A stretch of DNA of 64,000 nucleotides from Ignavibacteriota bacterium. Lineage in GTDB: Bacteria; Bacteroidota; Ignavibacteria; UBA10030; UBA6906. Shown piece after piece: positions 3,779 to 57,546 of the stretch. The stretch lies in assembly GCA_003152875.1 (NCBI GenBank), contig PMBF01000076.1:180604-244603 (forward strand), written 5' to 3'. The notes under the pieces are model-generated. The model was given only the letters and a program-made list of their open reading frames with translations. It was not told the DNA's origin and did no database searches. A program made the translations under genes and the position numbers. Within the stretch, counting starts at the first letter, position 1. Each line of letters begins with the position of its first letter.

Positions 3779-5070
3779 GTTTCAAGTTCCTTGAATAATT
3801 CAGATGTTTGCCGCCTGTAAATGCCGATGCCGGAGATCGTGGTCCCGAGAAATGTGGCAAGCAAGCCCGGAAGAAACCCGATCACATAGGAGAACGGCGA
3901 TATCCGGGCCCGTATGATGTTGGGAAGCATCATCGTGCTCTCCTTCAAGACCGACCCGATATCGAACCCATGCGCCTGAGTATATGCGGCCGCCGCCAAT
4001 CCGGTCGCCGTGCCGGCCACAGCGCCGGCGAAACCGATCATCAGCGACTCAGCCTGCAACGACACGTAGACGTGCTCCTTTTCCTCACCGATCGCGAGAC
4101 GGACGCCGAATTCTCCGTATCGCCGCAGACTTCCCGTCAACCCCGCATTCCATAGGACGATCGACATCGCCACAACGAAGACACCCATGATGACTCCCGA
4201 AAATACATCAACATAGTCGAGATAGTCAGACAGCCCGCTTTGGGTGCGAGGGGTTCCCATGACCGGGGAGAATGCGCCTGTATCACGAGGAGAGTCCCCG
4301 GGATCATTCCTGTGACAGGCATTGAAGACTGCGGTGACCGCATTTGCCCGATCTTCGTGATAGAGATCGTCTGCAAAGAAGCCCAGGATCTCTCCCGCGC
4401 CCCCCTGCATATCCAGGGCCTGCTGTATGTCCGCGAGATCTGCAATCACTGTCGCCTTGTCCATTGCGGCAATTCCGAACCGGACCGTACCGGCAATGAC
4501 GAAATTCATGACGCTCATGCTCCCGTACATGGTCGAACTGATGAATGTGGCGGTGTCGCCAGGCTGGATGCCGAGACGGGCTGCAAGGTCCACGCCTGCC
4601 AGGATTTCCCCGCGGTTTCTTGGCACGCGCCCCTGGACGATGGCGTTTTCGATGTTGAGTATACGCCATTCGGGACTGTCGGGGGAGAGCAGATCGACCG
4701 CCATTCCACTCACGGGAGCCTGTGCCCTCGTCTCACCCTTCTCGTCCGGGATATCCAGAAGTCCCCCGAACTTGATGCGCGGAGTCCAGAGGAGATCCGG
4801 ATACAGGCGGCGCAATTCCGTCATGAGTGTATCGATTCCCAGCAGTCCCAAATCGTTGGGGTTTTGGTCTGCTTCCTTCGCGTAGGCCTTCGTCATCACA
4901 CGAATGTGGCCTGTGCTGTAGTGCGCCGTGGATTCCAGCAGGGATGAGAGCACACCGTTCAACCAGGCGTGCAAGAACACCGTCAAGACGACGCCGGCAA
5001 ACACGGTGAGGAATGGGAACAGGGACCGGGATCGATCGCGCAAGAGACCCTTAAACAGGAAGGGGATCAC
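3775..5070 (-). CDS. ABC transporter permease, FtsX/MacB-like with a large periplasmic domain. The first 198 aa of the 629-aa track ORF are an out-of-frame overlap with the upstream permease and were trimmed; the start is a GTG in a GTGA overlap.
   Basis: The protein-like sequence begins at ...VIPFLFKGLLRDRSRSLFPFLTVFAGVVL. Four TM segments occupy the C-terminal third. The stop of the upstream ORF overlaps the GTG start (ctTGTGTGAtcc). Confidence 0.7.
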   Translation of the reverse strand: MIPFLFKGLLRDRSRSLFPFLTVFAGVVLTVFLHAWLNGVLSSLLESTAHYSTGHIRVMTKAYAKEADQNPNDLGLLGIDTLMTELRRLYPDLLWTPRIKFGGLLDIPDEKGETRAQAPVSGMAVDLLSPDSPEWRILNIENAIVQGRVPRNRGEILAGVDLAARLGIQPGDTATFISSTMYGSMSVMNFVIAGTVRFGIAAMDKATVIADLADIQQALDMQGGAGEILGFFADDLYHEDRANAVTAVFNACHRNDPGDSPRDTGAFSPVMGTPRTQSGLSDYLDYVDVFSGVIMGVFVVAMSIVLWNAGLTGSLRRYGEFGVRLAIGEEKEHVYVSLQAESLMIGFAGAVAGTATGLAAAAYTQAHGFDIGSVLKESTMMLPNIIRARISPFSYVIGFLPGLLATFLGTTISGIGIYRRQTSELFKELET

Positions 5071-14905: not shown

Positions 14906-15026
14906 ACAGACCTGCTACTCTTCTATGAAGCAAGAGTGGCCAGCCTTGTACCGGGAAAACATGAAACGCTCCCATCCATTACTTGAACAGGAGCGTATTG
15001 AAGGGGCAGGATTTGAAAAGACCTAG

Positions 15027-15099
15027 AGCTGGCGGGCGGATTTGAACCGTCGACCTGCTGATTACGAATCAGCTGCTCTACCAGCTGAGCTACGCCAGC
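15027..15099 (-). tRNA. tRNA-Thr, anticodon CGT, 73 nt with no encoded CCA.
   Basis: The reverse complement folds into a cloverleaf: acceptor GCTGGCG/CGCCAGC, D-arm GCTC-AGCTGGTA-GAGC, anticodon arm GCTGA-TTCGTAA-TCAGC (anticodon CGT) and T-loop TTCAAAT. Confidence 0.85.
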
Positions 15100-15320
15100 A
15101 AGAAAGGCCTGTTAATATAAGGTTAAAGCCTCAGAAACGCAACGATTCAACGTCCACCACTTCCCCTTTCACTGGTGCGACTTCCTCGCTGCTTTCATCA
15201 TATCCTATTCCCGTGTCCAGGAATAGCTCGGCACCCCCATCCAGACCCTTCAAACCGGTGTAGGAGACAAGAGAATCCACAACCATGGAATTCGAATATG
15301 TGTGTGCAAGACAGAGCACC

Positions 15321-16712
15321 TTAATGGATCCCGGGCTCGGTCATCTTGCGCAAGTCGAAGATCTCGTTCAATTTCTCCGGAGTCAGCCATCCCCTCCCCG
15401 CAACGATCTCGCGGAGGGTGCGGCCGGTTGAAAGTGATTCCTTCGCGGCTTCTGCCGACCGCTGGTAGCCGACATGCGGGTTCAAAGCCGTCACTATGCT
15501 GAGGCTCCCTTCAGCATAAGCCCGACATCGTTCCTCGTTTGCCGATATCCCCTCAATGCCTTTCCGCCTGAATGCTTCAATCGCGTTAGCCAGAATTTCA
15601 AGTTCATGAAGGAGATTGAACGCGACAACCGGCATCATCACATTTAATTCCAGCTGCCCCGCCTGTGCAGCCATCAACACGGTTGTGTCACACCCGAAAA
15701 CCTGGAAACACACCATGTCGAGCATCTCCATCATGACAGGATTCACCTTTCCCGGCATGATGGAGGAGCCTGGCTGGACCGCGGGGAGGTTTAGCTCGAA
15801 GAGACCGGTCCTGGGCCCGGAGGCGAGCAGGCGGATGTCGTTCGCAATCCGCACCAGGTCCTGCGCGAGGTTTCGAACCGCTCCGGAGAGTTCCACCATG
15901 GGCCTCAGGCTCTGCATCGCCTCGAAATAGTCCCCGGCCATTCTAAAGTGTATGCCGGTCATCCTTGAGAGCTCCTCAACTATCAGCTGCCTGAACCGCG
16001 GATGAGCGTTCAACCCAGTCCCCACAGCGGTACCTCCGATCCCCAGCTCCTGGCAACTGAATGCTGCATGCCGCACCGGTTCACCATGGTACCGTATGTT
16101 GGCCCCCCATGCGCCGAACTCCTGCCCCAGCCGGATTGGTACCGCGTCCTGAAGATGAGTCCTCCCGGATTTGAGGACTCCATCGAATTCCGTTGACTTC
16201 CTTGACAACGTCTTTTCCAGCTCATCCATGGCCCGGAGCAGAGGACCCGTGAGCATAAGGGCTCCGATGCGGATGGCCGTCGGACAGACGTCGTTTGTCG
16301 ATTGGGCCATATTCACATGATCGTTCGGGTGCACAAGCGAATAGTCCCCCATCCGACCCCCGAGGAGTTCGGCAGCCCGGTTCGCCAGCACTTCATTGAC
16401 ATTCATGTTGTGAGAAGTCCCTGCACCCGCCTGATACACATCGACGACAAACCACTCTCGGTACTGTCCGGAGAGCACCTCATCGGCGGCCTCTATGATC
16501 GCATTTGCGATCTTGGTCTCCAAAAGGCCCAGCTCTCTGTTCACCAGAGCTGCCGCACGCTTGATTTGGACTGTAGCTTCGACGTACGCAGGTTTTGGCC
16601 TCAATCCGCTGATAGGAAAATTCCCCAATGCCCTCATCGTCTGGATTCCGTAGTACGCATCAGCCGGCAGATCCATTTCACCCAGCGTGTCCTTTTCTCT
16701 ACGAGTTTTCAC
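15321..16712 (-). CDS. aspA: Aspartate ammonia-lyase, from the aspartase/class II fumarase family. AspA is favoured over FumC.
   Basis: GSSIMPGKVNP SS-loop and DVYQAGAGTSHNMNVNEVLAN; the N-terminal KDTLGEMDLPADAYYGIQT matches the aspartase pattern ADAYYG better than the FumC pattern ADKLWG. Confidence 0.65.
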   Translation of the reverse strand: MKTRREKDTLGEMDLPADAYYGIQTMRALGNFPISGLRPKPAYVEATVQIKRAAALVNRELGLLETKIANAIIEAADEVLSGQYREWFVVDVYQAGAGTSHNMNVNEVLANRAAELLGGRMGDYSLVHPNDHVNMAQSTNDVCPTAIRIGALMLTGPLLRAMDELEKTLSRKSTEFDGVLKSGRTHLQDAVPIRLGQEFGAWGANIRYHGEPVRHAAFSCQELGIGGTAVGTGLNAHPRFRQLIVEELSRMTGIHFRMAGDYFEAMQSLRPMVELSGAVRNLAQDLVRIANDIRLLASGPRTGLFELNLPAVQPGSSIMPGKVNPVMMEMLDMVCFQVFGCDTTVLMAAQAGQLELNVMMPVVAFNLLHELEILANAIEAFRRKGIEGISANEERCRAYAEGSLSIVTALNPHVGYQRSAEAAKESLSTGRTLREIVAGRGWLTPEKLNEIFDLRKMTEPGIH

Positions 16713-16828
16713 GGTTGTTCCCTCCTTATGTATGGAGAACAGCGGCCAGCAAAGAACGGTTCTTCATCGGATGCGAAGACAGACCAGTTCCAAGCCGTGA
16801 CAAGCTGAACGTGAAGCGATGCCCGGAG

Positions 16829-17111
16829 GCGAGGACCCGGGGGGGAAAGCTCAGAAACGAGAACCTGGAAGGAGAATCTCGAAAGCGAAAAGCCCCCAAG
16901 GGGGAGAGTTTGGACGCGAGGAAGCCGGGGAAAGAGGTCGGAAGCCAGGACTTGGGGGGAGAAGTTCGGAAGCGAGGAAGCCGGGGAAGGAGGTCGGAAG
17001 CGAGGACCTGGGGGGGGAAGCTTGAAAGGGAGAACCCCCCAGGGGGAGAGCTTGGAAGTAAGAAACTGGGGAGAGGCTTCGGGAGGCAAGAAGCCAGGAG
17101 CCGGGAGGCAG
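16829..17111. repeat. Degenerate purine-rich tandem repeat array: about ten copies of an approx. 28-bp unit (consensus near GCGAGGAAGCCGGGGAAGGAGGTCGGAA), including two adjacent 56-bp units of about 88% identity. It lies between the aspA start and the 3' end of the GH31 gene.
   Basis: Read directly; for example 16916-16971 versus 16972-17027. There is strong strand asymmetry: G/A-rich on the plus strand, C/T-rich on the coding-sense minus strand. Confidence 0.7.
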
Positions 17112-17277
17112 TACTCGGCGGCCTTGTCCTTGAAAGTGTGCCAAATGTGAAAAAGTGTCTGGGCGAAGCCGCGCCAATTCCTCCCGAAGGACCTGCCGGC
17201 ATCTGAGCCCAATACGTGAGCGCGCTAGTTTAACATCCGTACCCGGGGACGGATGTAAGCAAGCTCCGCGCAAATCT

Positions 17278-19869
17278 TCAATATCCTGCCGTCAGATGCT
17301 TGAGCGCCCTGGTCTTGATGCTGTCAGGGACTGCCATTCCTCGAATCGCACCGCGGATCTCCTCCTGACTGCGGGAGAACCTCCCAAGCTCATCCCTGAA
17401 TGTGACCGGATTGATAGTGAGTCGATTCCCCGTCTGGGCGGCCTTCACCAGTACCCCGGGTGACCACTCCTTCGGCCACTGGTTGTTCAGCAGAGTCATG
17501 ACGCGTTGCAGTCGAGCGAGACGTCCGGGTAGCCCGTTGAGTTCATTCTCGAGAGAGTCGACGCCGGACGGCATTGACAGGACGACTTCAACCTTGCTCC
17601 CTACCGGGTATGCGCCGGTCCGGATCCTCACTGAAGCGTGGTCGCCATCATAACTCCATCCGGTGGATGCTTTGTCCCTCGTCCACGACAGGACCGCCCC
17701 GTTACCTGTGACCCGCAAGGGCGGAGCTGCGCCCGGCAGGACCACCTCAAAGGAGCGACTGACCGGCAAGCCGGGGTATTGCCCCTCCACAGGTCCAATC
17801 ACAATCTTGAGTGACAGGTTCTCAGTTTTCCAGAACCTTACGGGCGTCCACGCTCCCTCTCCCCGCTGATAGGCGGTAGTGTTCCCGGCGTCTTCATACA
17901 CACGGGTCGAACCGGAGTCCCCAGGCGCGATGGTCAATATCAACGGATCGACCGTCTTCTCACCGGTGTACTTCATGGCAGGCTGCATGGGAATGATCGC
18001 CCCGGGTCTCAAGAAGACCGGTATCTCGTCAAGGGCATAACAACGGGTCAGCGTCATCGGTCCGGCCAGGAGTGTGCCCGTCTGCCATTCAAACCAGTTC
18101 CCTGGGGGCAGCCAGAGAGTGCGGGCAGCGAGCATGGAATCGGGAGAGACCGGACTGACGACCGGTGCGACCAGCATTGCGTCCCCGAACAGGTACTCGT
18201 CCGTCCGGGCGTACGCCTCCCCGGTTTCGGGATAGTCGTAATACAACGGGTGACAGATCGAAAGGCCGCTGTCGTACGTCATCCGCGCGGAGGTATAGAG
18301 GTATGGGATCAACGCATAGCGGAGGAGGAAGGCGTCACGCATCCTGGCAAAATCATCCACGGGATATGCCCAAATGCGGCGCTCGGCACCCGGGTTCTTC
18401 GTTGTGTGGGTCCGGAGGATAGGACTGAAGACCCCAAACTGGATCCAGCGTGTGTAGAGTTCCGGAGAAAGGACACCGGGCATATGGCCTCCGATGTCGT
18501 GACTCCAGTACCCGAACCCCACGTTCGCAGCCGTGGCTGTGAAGTAGGGCTGGAACGCGAGCGAAGGCCAAACAGATACCACATCGCCGGAGAACCCGAT
18601 CTGGTAACGATGGTTGCCCAGTCCTCCCCACCGGTGGAAGAGCAGCGGACGTGCCTTCCCTTCCCTTTCCATGTCAGTAAAGAAGACATAGTTGAGCCAC
18701 CAGGTAGGGGTGACCCCGGGAATTGCCGTCGAGCCCCATTGCTGCCAGTCGAGCCAGAAGAAGTCGATCCCCTGGCGTTGGAGCGGGTGCATGACGAGGT
18801 TCATGTAGTTCAACGTGAATTTCTTGTCAGTGATATCGAACGGCACATAGTGTTTCGTGGAGGGATCGGTCCCCATGGCTCTTGCCATCTCTGGATAGAC
18901 GGCTTCGTGGGGCTGGATTCCAGAAGCAGGATGGATGTTGAGCGTGGTTTTGAGCCCGCGGTTCTTGCACCATGCAAGAAATCCTACGGGATCTGGGAAT
19001 ACATTCGGGTCCCACGTGTAGCCCGTCCATCCCAGCATCTGCCCCGCTTGATCGACCACATTCTTGCTCCACCGCATGTCAAACGTCAGATGCCAGTCCA
19101 TGTCGATCACCAGCACGTCAAGGGGCACGGTGTGTTCCTCGAATTGGCGGACCAGATCCTTGAATTCCTGGTCTGTGTATGACCAGTAACGGGACCACCA
19201 GGTCCCGAAGGCAAATCGCGGGGGCATGGGGATGCGGCCGGCAATGGCCGTGAAGTCATGGAGCGCCGCCCGGAAGTCGTGACCGTAGCCAAAGAAGTAG
19301 AGATCCTGCCGCTCGCCCGAGGGACGCGGCATGACCCAGGCCCACGGTGAGGCGTCGAACAGCGGGCGAGCGCCGTCATCCACGACAGCCCATCCATCCC
19401 GGGACACCAACCCCGGTTCAAGCGGCGTGGCCCCCTCCACCCCATCCAGCGTCCTAATCGTCCCTTTCAGGTTGCCCAGGTCGGCGGTTCCCGGCCTCCA
19501 GGAGTGGGGGACGCCGTTGAGGGAAAAGCGGATTTCGAGGTTGTCCGCGGCGAGGCGTCCGCTGCCCTTGAGAAACCGGAGCTCAAGCGCAGAGGTACGG
19601 ATCAGCAGCGTATCCTTGCTGACTGACACTGTAAAGGGCGGGACCGTCATTTGCCGGTTCAGAAAGACCAGCGACGCATGGTCTTCGAATACCCCGTCAG
19701 CGGCCCACTCCAGCCTCAGAAGCCTGGGAGTGAGAATCGTGAACCGGCAGCTGCCGTCCGTGACGATAGCGCGTGCATCTGCAACCGGATTGGCATCCTG
19801 GGCCGGAGCGGCGGCAGGCACCATGAAGAGCAAGAGCAGCAGGCTTGCGCCCTGCAATCTGGTGAGCAT
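17278..19869 (-). CDS. Glycoside hydrolase family 31 protein (alpha-glucosidase/alpha-xylosidase-like), secreted.
   Basis: Signal peptide; the GH31 nucleophile region GIDFFWLDW and the acid/base region RYQIGFSGDVVSVWPSL...GFGYWSHDIGG; length about 860 aa. Confidence 0.75.
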   Translation of the reverse strand: MLTRLQGASLLLLLFMVPAAAPAQDANPVADARAIVTDGSCRFTILTPRLLRLEWAADGVFEDHASLVFLNRQMTVPPFTVSVSKDTLLIRTSALELRFLKGSGRLAADNLEIRFSLNGVPHSWRPGTADLGNLKGTIRTLDGVEGATPLEPGLVSRDGWAVVDDGARPLFDASPWAWVMPRPSGERQDLYFFGYGHDFRAALHDFTAIAGRIPMPPRFAFGTWWSRYWSYTDQEFKDLVRQFEEHTVPLDVLVIDMDWHLTFDMRWSKNVVDQAGQMLGWTGYTWDPNVFPDPVGFLAWCKNRGLKTTLNIHPASGIQPHEAVYPEMARAMGTDPSTKHYVPFDITDKKFTLNYMNLVMHPLQRQGIDFFWLDWQQWGSTAIPGVTPTWWLNYVFFTDMEREGKARPLLFHRWGGLGNHRYQIGFSGDVVSVWPSLAFQPYFTATAANVGFGYWSHDIGGHMPGVLSPELYTRWIQFGVFSPILRTHTTKNPGAERRIWAYPVDDFARMRDAFLLRYALIPYLYTSARMTYDSGLSICHPLYYDYPETGEAYARTDEYLFGDAMLVAPVVSPVSPDSMLAARTLWLPPGNWFEWQTGTLLAGPMTLTRCYALDEIPVFLRPGAIIPMQPAMKYTGEKTVDPLILTIAPGDSGSTRVYEDAGNTTAYQRGEGAWTPVRFWKTENLSLKIVIGPVEGQYPGLPVSRSFEVVLPGAAPPLRVTGNGAVLSWTRDKASTGWSYDGDHASVRIRTGAYPVGSKVEVVLSMPSGVDSLENELNGLPGRLARLQRVMTLLNNQWPKEWSPGVLVKAAQTGNRLTINPVTFRDELGRFSRSQEEIRGAIRGMAVPDSIKTRALKHLTAGY

Positions 19870-19877
19870 GGGGAATC

Positions 19878-20837
19878 TTACCTTGATACTGGTTCAAGAA
19901 TTGGCCGGCGTGCGGACGAAACCACGTGCAGATTTATCAGGAACGCCTGTACACCGTTGAGGAAGGTCTCCTCGTCATGAAAGATAGCCGAACTGTGCCC
20001 GCCGTGAAGCTCCAGAAATGTCTTCGGCGGCGCCGCCGCCTCGTAAAGCTTCTGCCCGTGCGAGAACGGCACGACATTGTCCTCCACCGCGTGGATGAAG
20101 AGTTTCGGAATTGTCAGCGAGCCAACCTTGTGGATCGAATCAAAGTGGTTTTGCGCAAACAGTCTGATGGGAAGATACGGGTAGAGCTCCTGACCCCTGT
20201 CCGTGACGGAGGTGAATGCCCCTTCAACGATAAGGCACGCGGCCTTGCGCCTCACGGCCAGTTCCACTGCCACTCCGGATCCGAGCGAGTGACCATAGAT
20301 GATGACACGTTGAGGGGGGACCCGGAGTACTTCGATGAGATGGTCGTACATTGTCTCCGCATCAAGATAGAGACCCTGCTCTTCCGGCCGCCCTTCGCTT
20401 TCGCCGTAGCCCCGGTAGTCTGCGGTGAAGACGTTGACGCCCAGTTTCTGCAGCTGCGCGTACCGGTCGACCCACTCCGAGATGTTCCCCGCGTTACCGT
20501 GAAGATAGAGCAGCCATGCACCGCTGGAATCCCCCGCAGGTGTCCGCATCTCCCACCCTACCAGGCGAAGGTGGTCCTTTGTCTGCAGCTCAACCCGTTC
20601 ATGATGAAATCCTGAAAAGCTCTCCGGGGGAGGAACCAGGCGCGAAGGATGATACACCATGCGGGTCTCATTCACCACGAACCACATCCCCATGCTTCCA
20701 TACACGAGGACGACTGCAACCACCAGAGACCAGAAGAATCTCGAAAGCAGCCGCCGCGACCCGATTCGAACATTTGCAGGAGAAGGAGCGGGAGGCGCGG
20801 GGGGCGGGGTTTGCATGGACAATTCTCGGCTGTTCAT
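19878..20837 (-). CDS. Alpha/beta-fold hydrolase with an N-terminal TM anchor.
   Basis: GHSLGSG nucleophile elbow; membrane-anchored N-terminus. Confidence 0.7.
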   Translation of the reverse strand: MNSRELSMQTPPPAPPAPSPANVRIGSRRLLSRFFWSLVVAVVLVYGSMGMWFVVNETRMVYHPSRLVPPPESFSGFHHERVELQTKDHLRLVGWEMRTPAGDSSGAWLLYLHGNAGNISEWVDRYAQLQKLGVNVFTADYRGYGESEGRPEEQGLYLDAETMYDHLIEVLRVPPQRVIIYGHSLGSGVAVELAVRRKAACLIVEGAFTSVTDRGQELYPYLPIRLFAQNHFDSIHKVGSLTIPKLFIHAVEDNVVPFSHGQKLYEAAAPPKTFLELHGGHSSAIFHDEETFLNGVQAFLINLHVVSSARRPILEPVSR

Positions 20838-21595
20838 TGAACGGGGGGGTGCGGGATTCCCGGTTTTGCGGCAAGACGGGCGGGCGCATTTCCTTGTACC
20901 CTCAGCCTGTCTTCCCGTCCGTCCCTCAGCAGGATCAGGCGGTAGCAGGCATAGGCTGCAAAAGGTGCCACGATCACGTCAATCGTGTAGTGGACATGCT
21001 GCCAAAGCACCGCAACGGCTACTGCCGCGGCACAACAGAGGAAAAGCGCTTTGAGCAGCCGTCCGCGCGCGGTCAGGGACAGCAGGAAGAGCGTGGACGC
21101 GTGGCCGGAAAAAAACAAGTCTCTGGTCGGTACCCCGCCGCTCCCGACGAATTGGACGAGTGGATCCGCGAGGGGTATCAGGCCTGGAGGGGGGTCGAGC
21201 GGCACGAAGAACATCATCACCATGCGGACAAGAACCAGCAGGACATAGCTCTCGATCGTCGTGAGCAGAGCCCTGGGGTGCCGCAGGAGGAAGATGACAC
21301 CGGCAATGAGTCCGGCATAAATCAACGCGAACGTCAGCCAGGTCAGGTTGACGGGCGAAACGAGAGCAAGAAGCGGGTCCCGAAGCACCACCCCAGGACG
21401 GCCCTCCACGACATCCAGGAACGACGTCAACGCCGCAAGGACAACACCGAGAGCGGGAACAGCAAGCAAACATCTTCGGCGGAATGCACGATCGGACCAT
21501 GCATCCGACCATGCGGCGGCAGTTGATGACCTCACAGGCAGCGGCGATTGGTGGGTTAATCCTGGTGAAGGCTGAACATGCTCTGAAACTAGCAA
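20834..21595 (-). CDS. PAP2-superfamily membrane protein (PAP2_C / phosphatidic acid phosphatase-like).
   Basis: Motifs FFSGHAS...WQHVHYTIDV between TM helices; 4-bp overlap with the downstream hydrolase gene. Confidence 0.6.
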   Translation of the reverse strand: MLVSEHVQPSPGLTHQSPLPVRSSTAAAWSDAWSDRAFRRRCLLAVPALGVVLAALTSFLDVVEGRPGVVLRDPLLALVSPVNLTWLTFALIYAGLIAGVIFLLRHPRALLTTIESYVLLVLVRMVMMFFVPLDPPPGLIPLADPLVQFVGSGGVPTRDLFFSGHASTLFLLSLTARGRLLKALFLCCAAAVAVAVLWQHVHYTIDVIVAPFAAYACYRLILLRDGREDRLRVQGNAPARLAAKPGIPHPPVQ

Positions 21596-21794
21596 CTGCC
21601 GGCTTGAAAGTCAATTGATCGATTGACGCTCTCCTCACAGACGCCCGATTCGCTCTCCAGGCGACTGGCGGCTCGACAGATCGGCAAAGCGAGGGGTTTG
21701 ACAGCGAGGGACCGTAGGTCATCGCCGCGGTTTCGGCTGCCGGCCGTGGTCCCGCGGCGCACATGCTCCGGCGGGACCACGACCAGATGACTGA

Positions 21795-24700
21795 TCAAGC
21801 TTCCACTCTGTCCGGTTCGATGTGCACCGGGCGCCCTTTCCAGGGAACGCGCGCAGCCCAGACAACGCGCTTGAACAGGACCGGAAGCCTGGCCTTCAGT
21901 CCGTCGACGTAGGTGTAGATGACCGGGATGACGACCAGGGTGAGAAGCGTCGAGCTGATGAGACCGCTGATGACCACAATCGCCATTCCCTGCCGCATCT
22001 CTGAGCCCGCGCCGAGCGCCAGCGCCAGTGGGAGCATGCCGAAGACCATCGTGGCAGTCGTCATAATGATAGGTCGAAGGCGGGTCTTCCCCGCCTCGCG
22101 GAGGGCCTCGTGCATTTCAAGTCCGCGCGCCCGGAGCGTGTTCGTGAAGTCCACGAGCAGGATTGCATTCTTTGTCACCAGACCCATCAGCATGATGATC
22201 CCGATCATGCTGAACATGCTAAGGGACTTGCCGGTAAGGGCAAGGCCGGCCAGGGCGCCGACCAGGGCAAGGGGCAAAGAAAACATGATCGTGAACGGAT
22301 GAATATACGATTCGAACAGGCTGACCATGATGATGTAGACAAAGAGAATCGCCAGACTGAGCGCGATCGTCATATCGCTGAACATGTCGCGCATGTTCTC
22401 CGTGTCTCCTCCATAGAAGACCCTGATTCCGGGCGGTACCCCCCCTGCATTGATCGCCTGCTCCACGGCCGCCGTCACCTGGCCGAGAGAGACCTGGCCT
22501 GAGAGGTTAGCCGCTACCGTGACAAGGCGCTCCCGGTCTTTACGCTGGATCTCCGAAGGACCCTTGCCATAGGTGATCGCCGCGACCTGGCGGAGCTGGA
22601 CCGCCTGGCCATAGTGATTCAACAGGGTGATCTCCGCTACATCGCGTGCCCGGTCGCGGTTGGCTTTTTTCAGGATAACACGCGTATCATATTCAGTATC
22701 TCCTTCGGTGTACTTCGTGCTGACATCTCCTTCAATCGCCGTTCTCACGGCCATTCCGACCTCGGCCAGCGTGAGTCCCATGCGCGAGGCCTTTTCCCGG
22801 TCAATCTCGATCTTGACCTCGGGCTTTCCCTCCTCCCACGACGTTTCGATGCCGGCTGTCCCCTTTGCAGCGGCAAGGATGTCGGCTACTTTTCCCGAAA
22901 AGGCAACCACATCGGTCAGGTTGCTTCCGATGATCTCGATCTGCAGCGGGGCGGCATTTGCCGAGCCGAACATTCCAATGTTGTTGAAACTCATGGTGAG
23001 CCCTGGGATCGTACGGGCCTGCTGTTGAATTGCCATCATGACCTGCTGCGAGGACCGCTTGCGCAGCTGCCGGTCAACGAGCTTGACCTGGACCTGCCCG
23101 ACGTTCGATTGCTCGGCGTTCTTCCATGCGGTCTGCTTCTTACCCGAGGTGGAGAGATAGCGCTGAACCTCCGGCATGGCGGCGACGATCGCCTCCACGC
23201 CTCGCACGGCCTGATCCGTCTTCTCGAGCGTGGTCCCGAGGGGCATGTCCAGGTTAGCGGCGAAATCGCCGCGATCGACGTCGGTCATGAATTCGGTCCC
23301 GATCAGGCCGGCCGGCAGAAGGGCGAGGCTGGCGATCAGGAGCAACCCGCTGGTGAGAAGCACCGTTTTCCGGCGGTCCAGGGCCCACGTCAGGAGATTC
23401 CGGTATGATTCGCCGAGCTGTTCCTGTTTCCCTTCAATCCAGGATATGAACCGGCCGGCGAGGCTCGTCCTGGACCACACCGTCACCTTCGACCATTTTG
23501 CCGAAAGCATGGGCGTGAGCGTGAACGAGACAAAGAGAGAGAGGAGGGTCGAGACGACAATGGTCAGGCCGAATTCTCCGAAAATCCTCCCCACCATCCC
23601 TCCAACCAGCGAGATCGGCAAAAATACGACCACATCCACCAGCGTGATCGCGATGGCGGCAAATCCAATTTCGCTCCTGCCGTTGATGGCCGCCTTCACC
23701 CGTTCCTCTCCCTTTTCCATGTGCCGGTAGATGTTCTCCAGCACGACGATCGAATCGTCGACCAGGATGCCGATGACGAGGGCGAGCGCCATCAGCGAGA
23801 CCAGGTTCAGAGTGAAGTTCAACAAATACATGAAGAAGAATGTCGTGACCAGCGATGTCGGGATCGCGAGGAGCACGATGAGCGAATTCCGCACGCTGTG
23901 CAGGAACAGGAAGAGAACGAGCGCAACCATCAGGATTGCCAGGAACAGGTCGCGGTTCACTTCATGCAGGGCATTGCGGGTGAAATCGGTGATGTCCTGT
24001 GCCACTGTGAACTTGACTTTCCCCGGGTTGTCGGACTCGAACTCCTTCATTGCAAGGCCAAGCCGGTCGCTCGTTTTCACAGAGTTGGCGTCGGATTGTT
24101 TCTGAATAACCAGCACTACGGAATTCTCGCCGTTCAGCCTGGTCTGGAGGGGATTCTCCTTCTCGCTGTCCTTGACCTCGGCAACGTCCTGGAGGTGCAC
24201 CACACCCGCCTGCGTTGCCGCCACCACCATAGTGCTGATCTCATCCGTGCTCCGGAACTTCCCAGCGAGGCGGACGATGTACTGGTTCTGCGCTTCATCG
24301 ATCTTCCCGGTCGGGAAATCCAGGTTCTCGCGCGCGAGCGCCTGGGAGACCTGCAGGATCGACAATCCATAGGAGTTGAGTTTCTGGTTATCGACCTCCA
24401 CCCGGATCTCCCTCTCCCTCCCCCCGACAATCGTGATCGTCGACACGCCGTCGACCTGTTCCAGCCTGGGTTTCACCTTGTCCTTGACGAACTGGAAGAG
24501 ATCCCGGGGGGGGAGGCTCCCCGTGACCGAGATGCGGAGGATCGGGAACGCATTCATGTCCGACTTGGACACACGGGGGGTCTTTGCCTCATCCGGGAGC
24601 TTCGTCCTCGCCTGGTCGACCACGCGCTGGATCTCGTTGGTGACGACATCCACGTCGGCACTGAAGGTGAATTGAGCCAGGATCACCGAGAGGCCTTCAT

Positions 24701-24953
24701 ACGAATAGGAGCGGACATTGTCCAGCTTGTTCACTCCGCTGACCACCTCTTCGAGGGGCTTGGAAACAAGGGATTCGACCTCCTTCGGGCCGGCTCCCGG
24801 ATACACGGTCACCACAGAGACCATGGGCCAATCCATCTTCGGGAGGAGGTCGACGCCCATGCGGCTGTATCCGAAGATGCCCAGCACGGCGAGGGCCACG
24901 AAGATCATAGTCATGAAGGCAGGCCGGCGTATTGCAACTTCTGTGATTTTCAT
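21795..24953 (-). CDS. RND efflux transporter permease, AcrB/HAE1 family.
   Basis: 1052 aa with 12 TM helices and two large periplasmic loops; a typical AcrB N-terminus. Confidence 0.9.
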   Translation of the reverse strand: MKITEVAIRRPAFMTMIFVALAVLGIFGYSRMGVDLLPKMDWPMVSVVTVYPGAGPKEVESLVSKPLEEVVSGVNKLDNVRSYSYEGLSVILAQFTFSADVDVVTNEIQRVVDQARTKLPDEAKTPRVSKSDMNAFPILRISVTGSLPPRDLFQFVKDKVKPRLEQVDGVSTITIVGGREREIRVEVDNQKLNSYGLSILQVSQALARENLDFPTGKIDEAQNQYIVRLAGKFRSTDEISTMVVAATQAGVVHLQDVAEVKDSEKENPLQTRLNGENSVVLVIQKQSDANSVKTSDRLGLAMKEFESDNPGKVKFTVAQDITDFTRNALHEVNRDLFLAILMVALVLFLFLHSVRNSLIVLLAIPTSLVTTFFFMYLLNFTLNLVSLMALALVIGILVDDSIVVLENIYRHMEKGEERVKAAINGRSEIGFAAIAITLVDVVVFLPISLVGGMVGRIFGEFGLTIVVSTLLSLFVSFTLTPMLSAKWSKVTVWSRTSLAGRFISWIEGKQEQLGESYRNLLTWALDRRKTVLLTSGLLLIASLALLPAGLIGTEFMTDVDRGDFAANLDMPLGTTLEKTDQAVRGVEAIVAAMPEVQRYLSTSGKKQTAWKNAEQSNVGQVQVKLVDRQLRKRSSQQVMMAIQQQARTIPGLTMSFNNIGMFGSANAAPLQIEIIGSNLTDVVAFSGKVADILAAAKGTAGIETSWEEGKPEVKIEIDREKASRMGLTLAEVGMAVRTAIEGDVSTKYTEGDTEYDTRVILKKANRDRARDVAEITLLNHYGQAVQLRQVAAITYGKGPSEIQRKDRERLVTVAANLSGQVSLGQVTAAVEQAINAGGVPPGIRVFYGGDTENMRDMFSDMTIALSLAILFVYIIMVSLFESYIHPFTIMFSLPLALVGALAGLALTGKSLSMFSMIGIIMLMGLVTKNAILLVDFTNTLRARGLEMHEALREAGKTRLRPIIMTTATMVFGMLPLALALGAGSEMRQGMAIVVISGLISSTLLTLVVIPVIYTYVDGLKARLPVLFKRVVWAARVPWKGRPVHIEPDRVEA

Positions 24954-27562: not shown

Positions 27563-28246
27563 TCACGGCCGGGCCGGCGTGACGAGATCGTCAAAAGATG
27601 CCTTCGCTTTTTCTGTCATCATCGCCTGCACCAGAAGCTTGTTTGCTTTCCTCAGCATCGCTTCCAGATTGAGCCCGTGCTTGCCCGTCCAGGCCCACTC
27701 GTCACGATCGATCAATCGCATGAGCCCATTGGAGTTTGACCAGAGCATGACCCCTGCCTCCAGAGGATCGACGTCATCACGCAGGAGTCCACCCTCTACC
27801 GCCCGGCGAATGATGCCCACGACCAGATCCCAGATCCTGGTGTCAAGGAGTTCGCACTGTTCCATCATCTCACTGGAGACCTGGCTGTGGATCCGGGGAT
27901 TTTCGAGGAAGTAATACATCCGGAAATAGTTGCGCTGCTCCTGGAAATAGGCAAAGTAGGCCTCCCCGAGGTTGAAGAGGTGCCTGATTGGGTTTTCATC
28001 CGTGGCAATCGCCTTCTTGAACATCTCATACATGATTTCCGAACCACGAAGCAGGACGGCGATGTAGAGGTCCTCTTTGCTCTTGTAGTAGAGATAGAGA
28101 GTGCCCTTACTCAGTTCTGCCGATTCGGCAATCTCATCCATCGTGGCGGGAGCAAATCCCTTTTCGAAGAAAATTCTCTCCGCCGCATTGATGATCTCCT
28201 CCCGCCGGGCTCCCTTTTCTCTCTCTTTTCTTTCCTTGATTCCCAT
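27563..28246 (-). CDS. TetR/AcrR-family transcriptional regulator, the first gene of the efflux operon.
   Basis: N-terminal HTH ...FAPATMDEIAESAELSKGTLYLYYKSKEDL; about 227 aa. Confidence 0.85.
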   Translation of the reverse strand: MGIKERKEREKGARREEIINAAERIFFEKGFAPATMDEIAESAELSKGTLYLYYKSKEDLYIAVLLRGSEIMYEMFKKAIATDENPIRHLFNLGEAYFAYFQEQRNYFRMYYFLENPRIHSQVSSEMMEQCELLDTRIWDLVVGIIRRAVEGGLLRDDVDPLEAGVMLWSNSNGLMRLIDRDEWAWTGKHGLNLEAMLRKANKLLVQAMMTEKAKASFDDLVTPARP

Positions 28247-28264
28247 TTGGTCCTTCCGTCGATC

Positions 28265-28281
28265 AATGACTATAAGTCATT
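28265..28281. promoter_or_regulatory. Perfect 17-bp palindrome AATGACTATAAGTCATT, 19 bp upstream of the tetR start. Candidate TetR operator.
   Basis: Read directly; perfect dyad; sits in an AT-rich promoter region. Confidence 0.5.
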
Positions 28282-28355
28282 TATTAGGAGCCAATATAAT
28301 CAACAACTATTGATTTATCAATATTGTATATTTTTTATACTTCAACCATTTAGCT

Positions 28356-28370
28356 AATGACTATAGGTCA
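28356..28370. promoter_or_regulatory. Second, slightly imperfect copy of the operator palindrome (AATGACTATAGGTCA), about 91 bp from the first.
   Basis: Read directly; same TGACTATA(A/G)GTCA core. Confidence 0.4.
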
Positions 28371-28632
28371 GTGATACGAAGTATCTCTCCGTTTGTTTCG
28401 CAGCTCTCCTTTAATTGACGGACAGACCCGAACCGCACACAGGTTCGATTGGCAGGGGGCATCGGACGGATGGAATCAGCCCCGAGGATGACGGCGCATC
28501 CAAAACAGAGCGAGTTGAAACGGAACTGAGGTGGGAGAGAGCGCGAATCGGAACAATGGTTTTGTCCGGGCGATCATGGACGAGCCCCGGCAGACCATAT
28601 GCCGGGGCTCTCCATGCTGACCATTGAAGGGA

Positions 28633-55657: not shown

Positions 55658-55740
55658 GGTACCTCCGATGGCTGGTGATAAGTGGGTAATTGCATGGTGA
55701 AGATACGAAAAAGCTGTTGAAGGTTCAAGAACCGGGCACG

Positions 55741-56060
55741 GAGGATAACCCTTTGGAGGAATACGCTTTGGAGGATAACACTTTGGAGGATTGCCGTTTG
55801 GACGATCACCCCCTGGCGGATCGCACTTCTTTGGATCAACCTTGCGTGGATCGCTTATCGGCGGGCGCCTGGTCGGAGGGCGATCGGCCATCCGATGTTT
55901 CGTTCCCTTGAGGCCGGCCATCCGGAACACCCTTCTCCGGAATCCTGGTTTCCGGTGCCTCGTTTCCACCGGTCCGGACCTCCGGTCCATCATTCCCCTT
56001 GAAGGGGTCTCCCGGTGGTTCGGTCGCGGGTACCCGGACATCCGGCCCTTCGGGTCCAGC
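55741..56060. repeat. Tandem repeat with 15-bp periodicity. Four crisp units, GAGGA(T/A)(A/T)NC(N)CTTTG, are at 55741-55800, degenerating through the 3' end of rmuC. The 15-bp period equals a pentapeptide period in the RmuC C-terminal tail.
   Basis: Read directly. The translated minus-strand tail ...RIPEK GVPDG RPQGN ETSDG RSPSD QAPAD shows a 5-aa period. The crisp DNA units lie just 3' of the rmuC stop. Confidence 0.55.
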
Positions 56061-57410
56061 CGCCATATGCCCCGGAGCCCGCTCTACGGGGTTCACCTCC
56101 GTCGCCCGTTCATCTTCCAGGAGCGAGGGATCGATGACCTTCGAAGCGTGCGCGCCAAGCCGCTTCAGCTCTTCCACCCTTCGAATAATATTTCCCTTGC
56201 CGGTCCCGAGGTGGGCGACCGCCGCTTCGTGCCACCGCCGGACTCCTTCAATCCTTCGGCCAACCTCCTGCAGGTCCCCAAGGAGGCTCACGAATTTGTC
56301 ATAGAGGTCTCCCGCCCGGTGTGCGATTTCCACGGCGTTCCGGTTCTGCCTCTCAACGCGCCAGAGCGATGCAATGATCCGGAGCGTGGCGAGAAGGCTG
56401 GATGCGGAAACGATGAGGATATTGCGCGCAAGGGCATCGGTGGTCAGCGAGGGGTCGGCATTGACGGCATCGTTGAAGGCCGGTTCCACGGGAACGAACA
56501 TCAGAACAAAGTCCGGGCTCTGGAGCCCCTCCAGGGTCTCGTACCGTTTTTCAGAAAGCTCGCGCACATGGCGCCGCATCGCCTCAACGTGCCCGGCGAG
56601 GGCCGCGGCTTTCTCCTCGGGATCGGCCGCAGCGCAATGCCGCTCATATGCCAGGAGGGAGACCTTGGCATCGATGACCACATGGCGCCGCTCCGGCAGC
56701 ATGATGATCGCGTCCGGCTGCAGGCGGCGCCCGTCGCCGGTCATGTGCTGCTCCTGAACGGCAAATTCCCGGCCCCGCATGAGTCCCGATTGTTCGAGAA
56801 TGCGTTCCAGGATCATTTCACCCCAGTTTCCCCGGATCTTCGCCTGGCCGCGAAGCGCGGTAGTGAGGTTCCTGGCTTCTTCGCCGATAGTGCTGTTGAG
56901 CTGCTGGAGCTGGAGGAGCTGCTCACGGAGGGACTGGTTCTCACGCACCGAGTCCCGGTGCGTGGACTCGACCTTTTCCTCGAACCGGCCGATGCTTTCC
57001 TTCAGGGGCCCCAGCACTTCCTGGAGGGTGCCGCGATGCTCGTCATGGATTGTCCGGGAGGTTTCCACGAGAACACGGCGGGCGATGTTTTCGAAGTCTC
57101 CAGTGTATTTTGCCTCAAACTCCTCGAGGAGATGCCGCTGCTCGTCCAGACGCTGTCGAAGCGCCTCTCCTTCAGCTTCGGCCTTGGCAGCGGCGGATGT
57201 CAGATCGAGCACCTTCACGCGTGCCTCGAGTGCCTCGGCCATGGCTTCCTCAGCCCGCCCGGACATCAGCCGGAGGCGCTCGCTGGCCAGCGCGTTTTCC
57301 CCGCCTGCAGCGGCCCGCGCAGTCTCTTCCTTACGCAAGCGGGGGAGAAAAACGCCGGCTGCGGCAGCGATGCCGAGCAGGAACCCAAGGAGGGCAAGAA
57401 GGAGTGTCAT
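55836..57410 (-). CDS. rmuC: DNA recombination protein RmuC, with a low-complexity Pro/Gly/Glu-rich C-terminal tail.
   Basis: N-terminal TM helix, long coiled coil and the conserved RmuC core (...NWGEMILERILE...VIDAKVSL...FVLMFVP...). Confidence 0.8.
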   Translation of the reverse strand: MTLLLALLGFLLGIAAAAGVFLPRLRKEETARAAAGGENALASERLRLMSGRAEEAMAEALEARVKVLDLTSAAAKAEAEGEALRQRLDEQRHLLEEFEAKYTGDFENIARRVLVETSRTIHDEHRGTLQEVLGPLKESIGRFEEKVESTHRDSVRENQSLREQLLQLQQLNSTIGEEARNLTTALRGQAKIRGNWGEMILERILEQSGLMRGREFAVQEQHMTGDGRRLQPDAIIMLPERRHVVIDAKVSLLAYERHCAAADPEEKAAALAGHVEAMRRHVRELSEKRYETLEGLQSPDFVLMFVPVEPAFNDAVNADPSLTTDALARNILIVSASSLLATLRIIASLWRVERQNRNAVEIAHRAGDLYDKFVSLLGDLQEVGRRIEGVRRWHEAAVAHLGTGKGNIIRRVEELKRLGAHASKVIDPSLLEDERATEVNPVERAPGHMAAGPEGPDVRVPATEPPGDPFKGNDGPEVRTGGNEAPETRIPEKGVPDGRPQGNETSDGRSPSDQAPADKRSTQG

Positions 57411-57546
57411 GGACGGGTCCGATGTGCGACACCGTCAACATCAGGAAACCGCGGTTGAAAATCAAACATGAAGGACGTGGTGTGAACAGCATGGGTTCGT
57501 GCCGCCCCGGCAAGAATCGGGCACGCTCTTGTCATCCGCTCACAAA

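Follow-up and report, generated by a model that had tools for sequence, protein, structure and literature searches.

What is the purine-rich repeat array that separates a GH31 alpha-glucosidase-like gene from aspA, the gene for aspartate ammonia-lyase, and does it affect the expression of either gene? We examined this question in a 64-kb stretch of DNA (the window) from an uncultured Ignavibacteria/Bacteroidota-like MAG population of Stordalen Mire peat. Identical proteins are found in WOOD18 scaffolds and in the MAG GCA_003155505.1. The nearest named aspA homologs show 70-72% identity and are labelled Ignavibacteria(e)/Bacteroidota. T9SS sorting domains were seen on proteins of the window.

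Both genes are encoded on the minus strand, and the spacer between them is 565 nt long, with the array in its middle (Table 1). In the direction of the genes, the order of elements is GH31, an inverted repeat, a block of ~120 nt, the array, a segment of 106 nt and aspA. The array starts 167 nt past the stop codon of GH31 (17278-17280), and it ends 107 nt before the aspA start, a GTG at 16712. This start was confirmed, because an ATG is present at the matching position in a sister species (L087, described below). The initial annotation had placed the array in the GH31-aspA spacer, 3' of GH31 and upstream of aspA, and this placement is correct. Its limits needed a small correction, since the real start lies ~10 nt before 16829, and the distance to aspA is consequently 107-399 nt.

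Table 1. Coordinates of the genes, spacer elements and repeat units, numbered by window position
Feature	Position	Strand	Remarks
aspA, aspartate ammonia-lyase, downstream gene	15321..16712	(-)	Lyase_1 + FumaraseC_C
GH31 alpha-glucosidase-like gene, upstream gene	17278..19869	(-)	
Inverted repeat, 12+12 nt	17233..17256	(-)	downstream edge 21 nt past the GH31 stop, no T-run after it
Conserved intergenic block, 50 nt	17157..17206	(-)	48/50 matches to sister species
Block at the upstream (aspA-sense) array edge, 41 nt	17082..17122	(-)	39/41 matches to sister species
Array-to-aspA segment, 106 nt	16713..16818	(-)	84% conserved in sister species
Hairpin TCTTC-N9-GAAGA	16761-16779		within segment 16713..16818
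aspA SD AAGGAGGG, strong	16720-16727		7 nt before the GTG start
Whole minisatellite	16819..17111	(-)	~10 degenerate 28-nt units, unit length 26-33 nt
Unit U1	16824-16851		28 nt
Unit U2	16852-16879		28 nt
Unit U3	16880-16910		31 nt
Unit U4	16911-16938		
Unit U5	16939-16966		
Unit U6	16967-16994		
Unit U7	16995-17022		
Unit U8	17023-17052		30 nt
Unit U9	17053-17078		26 nt
Unit U10	17079-17111		33 nt
Array core, U4-U5 + U6-U7	16911..17022	(-)	adjacent 56-nt near-duplicates, 88-89% identical; TRF period 56, lag 56 z=9.6
U1-U3 block	16824..16910	(-)	lag 28 z=3.7
Degenerate units U8-U10	17023..17111	(-)	array-like in composition and motifs only

On the plus strand, the consensus of the units is YGGAAGCGAGGA-(short CC..GG palindrome)-GGGRAGRNT. 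Tandem Repeats Finder detected two periods at 16900-17020, one of 28 nt (3.6 copies, 72% matches) and one of 56 nt (2.2 copies, 89%), and a repeat search placed 4-6 more unit copies, in register, across 16819-17108. Autocorrelation of the whole array gave z=7.6 at lag 28 and z=6.2 at lag 56 when compared with 500 dinucleotide shuffles. Against such shuffles, the left section of the array scored z=3.7 at lag 28, and the centre scored z=7.1 and z=9.6 at lags 28 and 56, respectively; no lag was significant in the right 89 nt (17023-17111; z<=2.1). The array is thus a head-to-tail repeat of a unit within the 10-100-bp range, with a periodicity above chance, as defines a minisatellite. Ten or so copies of a 28-bp unit, with two adjacent 56-bp near-duplicates among them, had been proposed from inspection of the letters. 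The check by Tandem Repeats Finder and shuffling upheld both points, as the periods of 28 and 56 were clearly beyond those of shuffled sequence.

The 56-nt duplication in the core (U4-U5/U6-U7) is the most recent one. We also observed that 16824-16903 matches 16967-17046 (U6-U8) as an 80-nt block with 74% identity. This resemblance of U1-U3 to U6-U8 shows an older higher-order duplication of ~143 nt. Neither the unit nor an array like this one recurred elsewhere in the window.

The composition of the array is as unusual as had been described. Its plus strand is 75% purine, while the mean of the 64 kb is 49.6% (sd 4.7%, 250-nt windows), and this purine fraction is the maximum of the entire window. 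The minus strand, which is the sense strand of aspA and GH31, has 44.7% C, 29.4% T, 18.1% G and 7.8% A. The sense strand had also been described as full of CCTCC, and this did not hold: we counted 4 copies, against 5.3 +/- 2.1 expected from composition. None of the motifs of the array was enriched past composition.

Gene callers predict ORFs over the array in several assemblies: 158-, 167- or 188-aa ORFs on the minus strand and one of 192 aa on the plus strand. In both species, each strand has one or more open frames. It could be argued from this that the array encodes a low-complexity protein, as the 158/167-aa minus-strand ORF or the 192-aa plus-strand ORF, but we give this reading almost no credence. 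The frames are open because stop codons require A on the minus strand or T on the plus strand, each of which makes up only ~8% of its strand. The period of 28 nt is not a multiple of 3, so the frame rotates with every unit. The indels between the window and the sister species are not multiples of three either, and the open frames of the two do not correspond. A population variant with 7 C shifts the frame, and the contig that carries it has no called ORF. We also found no SD ahead of the ATG of the array ORF. When the 158-aa ORF was searched by HMMER against 1.84 billion representative proteins, only the ORF itself was returned, which means that arrays of this kind have not been called as ORFs elsewhere. 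An annotated coding domain in homologues would have spoken for a protein, and among these 1.84 billion proteins there was no homolog at all. The called ORFs are composition artefacts and the array is non-coding, as the initial annotation had assumed. The array accounts for the spurious 158-192-aa 'hypothetical proteins' that several pipelines have annotated.

We further evaluated the variation of the array within the population, using the window and seven other assemblies (L001-L006 and L112) that derive from different samples and pipelines. The same array was present in independent assemblies. The number of units was identical in 8/8 of the population assemblies; short-read assemblies could hide minor variants. 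The differences seen in the spacer were one SNP, a poly-C of 8 or 7 nt (window 17010-17017, G8 on the plus strand) and an insert in L004. The suggestion that the array is copy-number-variable was therefore not confirmed, since unit number was constant in the eight assemblies and changes of 30/31 nt were seen only between sister species. A copy number differing between strains of one species, the hallmark of a VNTR, was not found in this set.

In a search with the aspA protein, one close relative was found at 95% amino acid identity (L087, Logan SRR30681565), and none other was above 79%. This sister species has the identical gene order, a 579-nt spacer, and an array at the matching site with 41.7% C, 18.9% G and 7.9% A (C/G 2.21). 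The 28-nt period is kept as well (z=4.2). When the two arrays were aligned, the identity was 72% with 65 gap columns, and the indels included a 30-nt segment present only in the window and a 31-nt segment present only in L087. As a neutral yardstick we used the 4-fold degenerate sites of aspA and GH31, which are 77-79% identical between the two species; the rest of the spacer is 84-87% identical. By these three values, the array evolves as fast as neutral sequence or faster, through substitutions and whole-unit turnover, with its flanks constrained. Gain and loss of whole units are seen in the 30- and 31-nt indels against L087, together with the 56-nt and ~143-nt duplications. As judged from this alignment, the composition and periodicity of the array persist and its sequence does not; the comparison points to no purifying selection on the array sequence and gives no evidence of a sequence-specific function. 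The 41-nt block at the upstream edge is conserved in the sister species, unlike the remainder of the array.

In more distant relatives, both the array and the GH31-aspA junction were missing. In L088 (aspA 78%) there was no array and no junction, and aspA lies 60 nt after a PAP2-like gene. P0008 (aspA 75%) also had neither, with aspA 43 nt after an M28 peptidase gene. The next GH31 relatives after the sister species, L110 and L111 (GH31 68%), share the upstream synteny and have no array; there the RND-PAP2-abhydrolase-GH31 block is followed by yjbQ, not aspA. Among 80 genome loci of aspA relatives (<=73% amino acid identity), no comparable array was seen. The only strong skew among these loci, in L016, was a run of N and was discarded, and the remaining stretches with a skew proved to be coding sequence or unrelated repeats. 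A 19-mer common to both species gave 21 matches in JGI metagenome contigs, all of which were chance matches in coding sequence (VLASDL). Since the array and the junction are both missing in the more distant relatives, the array is, on this comparison of loci, a young and lineage-restricted feature of a rearrangement junction. A conserved RND-PAP2-abhydrolase-GH31 block would have been joined to aspA, leaving a long spacer. In that spacer a 28-nt unit would have been duplicated by slipped-strand or unequal-crossover events, and later duplications would have involved blocks of 56 nt and ~143 nt.

The mycobacterial MIRU, reportedly described by Supply et al. in 1997, are an example of an intergenic minisatellite/VNTR. 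Like them, our array is made of head-to-tail units of 10-100 bp in a spacer between co-directional genes, is non-coding or accidentally open, and changes by gain and loss of whole units. MIRU differ in being a dispersed multi-locus family with a conserved sequence and with strain-level copy-number polymorphism, whereas the array is a single orphan locus with no copy variation in eight assemblies and with an extreme purine/pyrimidine asymmetry. We conclude that the array is a real but fairly ordinary intergenic minisatellite, of the VNTR/MIRU kind by its structure and its mode of evolution.

The array is flanked by several other elements. The inverted repeat downstream of the GH31 stop is a candidate for a weak or U-tract-less GH31 terminator hairpin, U-tract-less because the T-run is missing after it. 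The conservation of the 50-nt block (17157..17206) is far above the neutral 77-79%. A stem-loop predicted at 17160-17211, with UCC-UUCG-GGA at its tip and containing a TGCCGGCA palindrome, encloses this block. The block is putatively either the 3' UTR/terminator zone of GH31 or a control region of aspA. Covariation in the 17160-17211 stem was considered, and the apparent compensatory changes were not counted as they need a register shift. At the other end of the spacer, a local UUCUCC/GGAGGG hairpin is predicted to pair the aspA SD in both species. No sigma-70-like promoter was found at 16400-17600 (with the sigma-70 consensus only), and no plus-strand terminator-like site in the same interval. 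Two minus-strand terminator-like matches fall inside the array, which is no more than shuffles yield. The Bacteroidetes-type promoter motif TAnnTTTG was missing in every intergenic region of the window, and could not be used for placing the TSS for this reason.

The array is most probably transcribed in the sense direction, because both flanking genes are on the minus strand and the GH31 hairpin is without a U-tract. The product would be ~290 nt of untranslated RNA that is C-rich, G-poor, A-poor and weakly structured. C-rich, G-poor and weakly structured untranslated RNA is the preferred loading substrate of Rho. If the array does anything, it is most likely that Rho would load on this RNA and terminate the read-through from GH31, so that aspA would be insulated. 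We tentatively propose that the array is a lineage-restricted non-coding minisatellite giving Rho-dependent termination of GH31 read-through. Should aspA have a promoter upstream of the array, the alternative outcome would be attenuation within the aspA leader.

Several measurements are consistent with this proposal. The C/G ratio of the sense strand is 2.47 over the array and reaches 42:9 in its best 78-nt window. YC dimers occur on the sense strand at 36.5 per 100 nt, against a background of 15.8. By far the longest tract of the 64 kb with C>=40% and G<=20% falls in the array (~264 nt). For the sense RNA of the array, the predicted minimum free energy was -74.7 kcal/mol; random 293-nt segments of the window gave -105 +/- 12, and a mere 1.3% of them were less stable. 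Published sequence criteria for rut sites call for more C than G in a 78-nt stretch, C residues at regular spacing and RNA lacking structure (PMC6407284). The array has C/G >1 with C at regular spacing over >=78 nt, low structure and no translation, although these criteria are permissive. Agreement with them is weak evidence, because RhoTermPredict calls as many as 23,930 sites in E. coli, and the rut criteria are thus very permissive (PMC6407284). Cooperation between Rho and weak intrinsic terminators is documented for 3' UTRs (bioRxiv 10.1101/2022.07.21.500918), and Rho with N-terminal insertions is common in Bacteroidota (PMC12360218).

For a Rho pause site we looked for a GC-rich hairpin with a 4-8-nt loop within 150 nt downstream. 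At 40-100 nt downstream of the array are the conserved TCTTC-N9-GAAGA hairpin and the SD hairpin, with stems that are not GC-rich and loops of 8-9 nt. In the TCTTC-N9-GAAGA hairpin itself the stem is AT-rich and the loop 9 nt long, so it does not look like the usual pause hairpin. Elsewhere in the window, intergenic spacers read in the sense direction had no general C>G bias (skew +0.014; 11/22 positive), and there is accordingly no sign that this genome marks its gene ends by C>G. Known rut regions (lambda tR1, trp t' and the mgtA/corA leaders) resemble the array in being C-rich, G-poor, weakly structured, untranslated and >=78 nt long, and the array resembles them also in lying downstream of a gene with a poor intrinsic terminator. 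Known rut sites differ in being much shorter and in not being tandem-repeat arrays, and we infer the Rho dependence of the array solely from its composition; any benefit to the cell is putative.

It is also possible, if slightly more doubtful, that replication slippage at the scar of a rearrangement produced the array as a selectively neutral by-product. The array would then leave the expression of GH31 and aspA untouched and be lost in time, by decay or deletion. Its divergence at or above the neutral rate with unit-sized indels, its restriction to two closely related lineages, the failure to find homologs or related arrays elsewhere, and a lack both of motif enrichment past composition and of significant folding on either strand are all as expected of such a by-product. 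Evolution at the neutral rate fits a functionless repeat equally. Against this, the array has kept its site, its extreme composition and its period through ~22% synonymous divergence. With two species only, persistence of composition is indistinguishable from plain inheritance. If the array is transcribed, Rho is unlikely to overlook a C-rich untranslated tract of 290 nt that separates two genes of the same orientation. The same tract could instead be a long 5' leader of aspA, in which the C/U-rich units work either in cis or by recruiting a C/U-binding protein; anti-SD pairing, an S1-/KH-type protein site and a translational enhancer were the mechanisms considered. The units do carry ACCUCCUU/CCUCC-like stretches, and an aspA promoter/operator could lie in the conserved blocks at 17157-17206 and 17082-17122, upstream of the array. 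We consider this unlikely, since CCTCC is unenriched in the array, the array sequence is not conserved in the sister species, and no aspA promoter was identified by sigma-70-type and TAnnTTTG scans. When the hypothetical full aspA leader was folded, the aspA SD paired locally (partition-function partner mass of 5.2 in the 3' segment and 0.12 in the array), whereas dinucleotide-shuffled arrays do capture the aspA SD (partner mass 4.0). Sequestration of the SD by the array was not supported by this fold, in which the partner of the SD is the local hairpin. Decidedly unlikely is an elaboration in which the array is an evolvable modular RNA device peculiar to this Ignavibacteria-like lineage, with the number of units setting the loading of Rho, or with the repeat RNA titrating an RNA-binding protein. 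In the titration version, the bound protein would recognise C/U if the RNA is sense, and GGA or SD motifs if it is antisense.

The plus strand was also evaluated as a possible ~300-nt purine-rich GGA-repeat sRNA, antisense to the spacer, that would sponge CsrA/RsmA-type or SD-binding factors. Its length and repeat layout recall CsrB, SD-like AAGGAGG/GGAG motifs are recurrent on it, and it has 26 GGA per 293 nt of array where ~7 are expected from the whole window. However, GGA (TCC on the sense strand) is within the dinucleotide expectation of the array itself (26 vs 21.5, z=1.8), and it is not among the enriched 3-mers of L087. The folding of the array was not significant (z=-0.18 for the plus strand and +0.22 for the minus strand), which leaves the plus strand with no hairpins to present GGA. 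An Rfam cmscan of 15000-19000 at E<=10 gave only tRNA-Thr and chance matches, nothing in the spacer, and none to CsrB, RsmX/Y/Z or any other family. No sigma-70-like promoter or terminator was found on the GGA strand in 16400-17600, and the neutral-rate evolution of the sequence counts against a plus-strand sRNA as well. A full-text search of the literature gave no link between Ignavibacteria and CsrA, the single match naming each term once. Thus, compared with CsrB/RsmZ, the array has a similar length of ~300 nt, repeated units and many GGA, and it lacks GGA stem-loops, GGA beyond composition, a promoter, a terminator, an Rfam match and sister-species conservation. The sRNA suggested in the initial annotation finds no support in these results, and we regard the sponge as very improbable. 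A DNA-level element, i.e. H-DNA/triplex or G-quadruplex modulating aspA transcription or replication, is extremely improbable, even though the tract is 75% purine with many G runs of 3-8. H-DNA takes an uninterrupted homopurine/homopyrimidine mirror repeat of ~15 bp or more; the array shares the strong R/Y bias of such repeats, but it is interrupted every <=11 nt, its purines run on without a break for at most 11 nt, and it contains neither a long mirror repeat nor any useful mirror symmetry. The earlier suggestion of H-DNA/triplex fails on that run length. For G-quadruplexes we took four G3+ runs with loops of 1-7 nt, or a G4Hunter score above 1.2-1.5. No canonical G4 of this form was found in the array, the mean G4Hunter score of the array is 0.74 with 2.6% of its windows >1.5, and of the 247 windows across the 64 kb whose |score| is >1.5, it contains only 7. 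A CRISPR had been dismissed from the start, and rightly so: the 28-nt unit is within the range of repeat lengths, but the units are contiguous, mutually degenerate (~70% alike) and without spacers.

As known now, the array matters little, being one more intergenic minisatellite of an uncultured bacterium. If the Rho reading is true, it would be a clean natural case of a rut region made of tandem repeats, and of a terminator/insulator born de novo by slippage after a rearrangement of gene order. If the extent of read-through into aspA is tuned by copy number, the array would act as a simple dial by which regulation can evolve; in the landing-pad version of the RNA device, it is the number of C-rich units that would set the coupling of GH31 and aspA expression.

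The insert in L004 consists of 90 nt with 10 N and two unrelated 33-nt ends, and both of its sides are flanked by an identical 14-mer, CCGACCTCCTTCCC. We rejected it as a 90-nt length variant because it contains 10 N. Neither end matched the window or viral contigs, and no other retrieved locus matched the first end. The insert represents either an artefact of scaffolding or both ends of an insertion carried by a sub-population. If the RNA-device reading holds, a possible insertion with a 14-nt duplicated target would also make the array a hotspot for mobile DNA.

We examined the gene order around the array, and found that synteny of the RND transporter-PAP2-abhydrolase-GH31 block extends to relatives whose GH31 is 68% identical (L110 and L111), where yjbQ comes next. 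In other relatives, aspA lies directly after PAP2 (L088), or after a gene for an M28 peptidase. Only this lineage has the GH31-aspA junction, with its 565-nt spacer. On its other side, aspA is separated by 415 nt from the next ORF, and this gap contains a tRNA-Thr gene, which lies downstream of aspA at a distance of 222 nt.

Gene callers, as well as public annotations, place 'hypothetical proteins' of 158-192 aa across the array, and the strand on which they are called varies with the pipeline. We conclude that these ORF calls are composition artefacts.

Coordinates of the features around the array and elsewhere (L001-L006, other assemblies of the same population; L087, sister species; L064, Geomonas sp. 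MAG)
Feature	Sequence	Position	Strand or remark
tRNA-Thr (anticodon CGT)	window	15026-15099	-
Predicted ORF over array	window	16709-17212	-
Predicted ORF over array	window	16726-17202	-
Predicted ORF over array	window	16628-17206	+
Predicted ORF over array	L001	5511-5987	
Predicted ORF over array	L003	8668-9144	
Predicted ORF over array	L005	5403-5981	
Predicted aspA Shine-Dalgarno hairpin	window	16720-16740	
Predicted aspA Shine-Dalgarno hairpin	L087	~4972-4998	
Interrupting stretch in array	L004	8887-8962	window ~16994/16995
Homopolymer run	window	17010-17017	
Conserved 50-nt block	window	17157-17206	
Predicted stem-loop	window	17160-17211	overlaps conserved block
Syntenic GH31 block	window	17278-24953	
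TetR-family regulator gene	window	27563-28246	
AT-rich spacer	window	28247-28632	
15-nt-unit array	window	55740-55860	
555-aa ORF	window	55791-57458	
Microsatellite	L064	~1790-1880	

Beside the array, an intergenic block of 50 nt is the same in the sister species at 48 positions, far exceeding the 77-79% identity at neutral (4-fold) sites. The block, which had no Rfam match, includes the palindrome TGCCGGCA and a hairpin tip, UCC-UUCG-GGA. It could act on aspA as a promoter or regulator site, or be an element of the GH31 3' UTR. Covariation in the outer stem of the predicted stem-loop was not established, since the apparent compensatory changes require a register shift. The Shine-Dalgarno of aspA is itself predicted to be paired, in both species, by a small local hairpin (UUCUCC ... 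GGAGGG). At one position of its stem, C is replaced by U, which can still pair with G. In fold energy, this segment was no better than its shuffles.

Assemblies of the same population also differ within the array. A run of eight G on the + strand, which reads C8 in the sense orientation, measures only 7 nt in two further assemblies (L002 and L006); the difference is a polymorphism in homopolymer length, or possibly an assembly error. In one Stordalen scaffold (L004), the U6/U7 unit junction is interrupted by 33 nt, 10 N and another 33 nt, both 33-nt parts being unrelated sequence, with an identical 14-mer, CCGACCTCCTTCCC, on each side. Either this is an artefact of scaffolding, or a sub-population carries an insertion with a target-site duplication, of which the scaffold shows the two ends. 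Viral contigs and the window gave no match to either end; nor, for the first end, did any other fetched locus.

Other repeats were also seen. A second degenerate tandem array in the window has a 15-nt unit, GGAGGATAACCCTTT, with 4.8 copies by TRF, extending to ~8 by eye. It spans the beginning of an orphan ORF of 555 aa that had no Pfam match; one frame of the array is open and gives E-D-N-P-L-like pentapeptides, and stops are present upstream in the frame of the ORF. L064 contains an intergenic microsatellite, (CACCATT) x ~13; a C-rich stretch comes next, and both lie upstream of a gene. This microsatellite is unrelated to the array, and is a further case of strand-biased intergenic repeats among the loci fetched for aspA.

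Elsewhere in the window, the spacer between an M13 peptidase gene and the TetR-family regulator gene is unusually AT-rich. It carries two copies of a palindromic motif, TGAC(C/T)TATAGTCATT, and is likely a TetR operator and promoter region.
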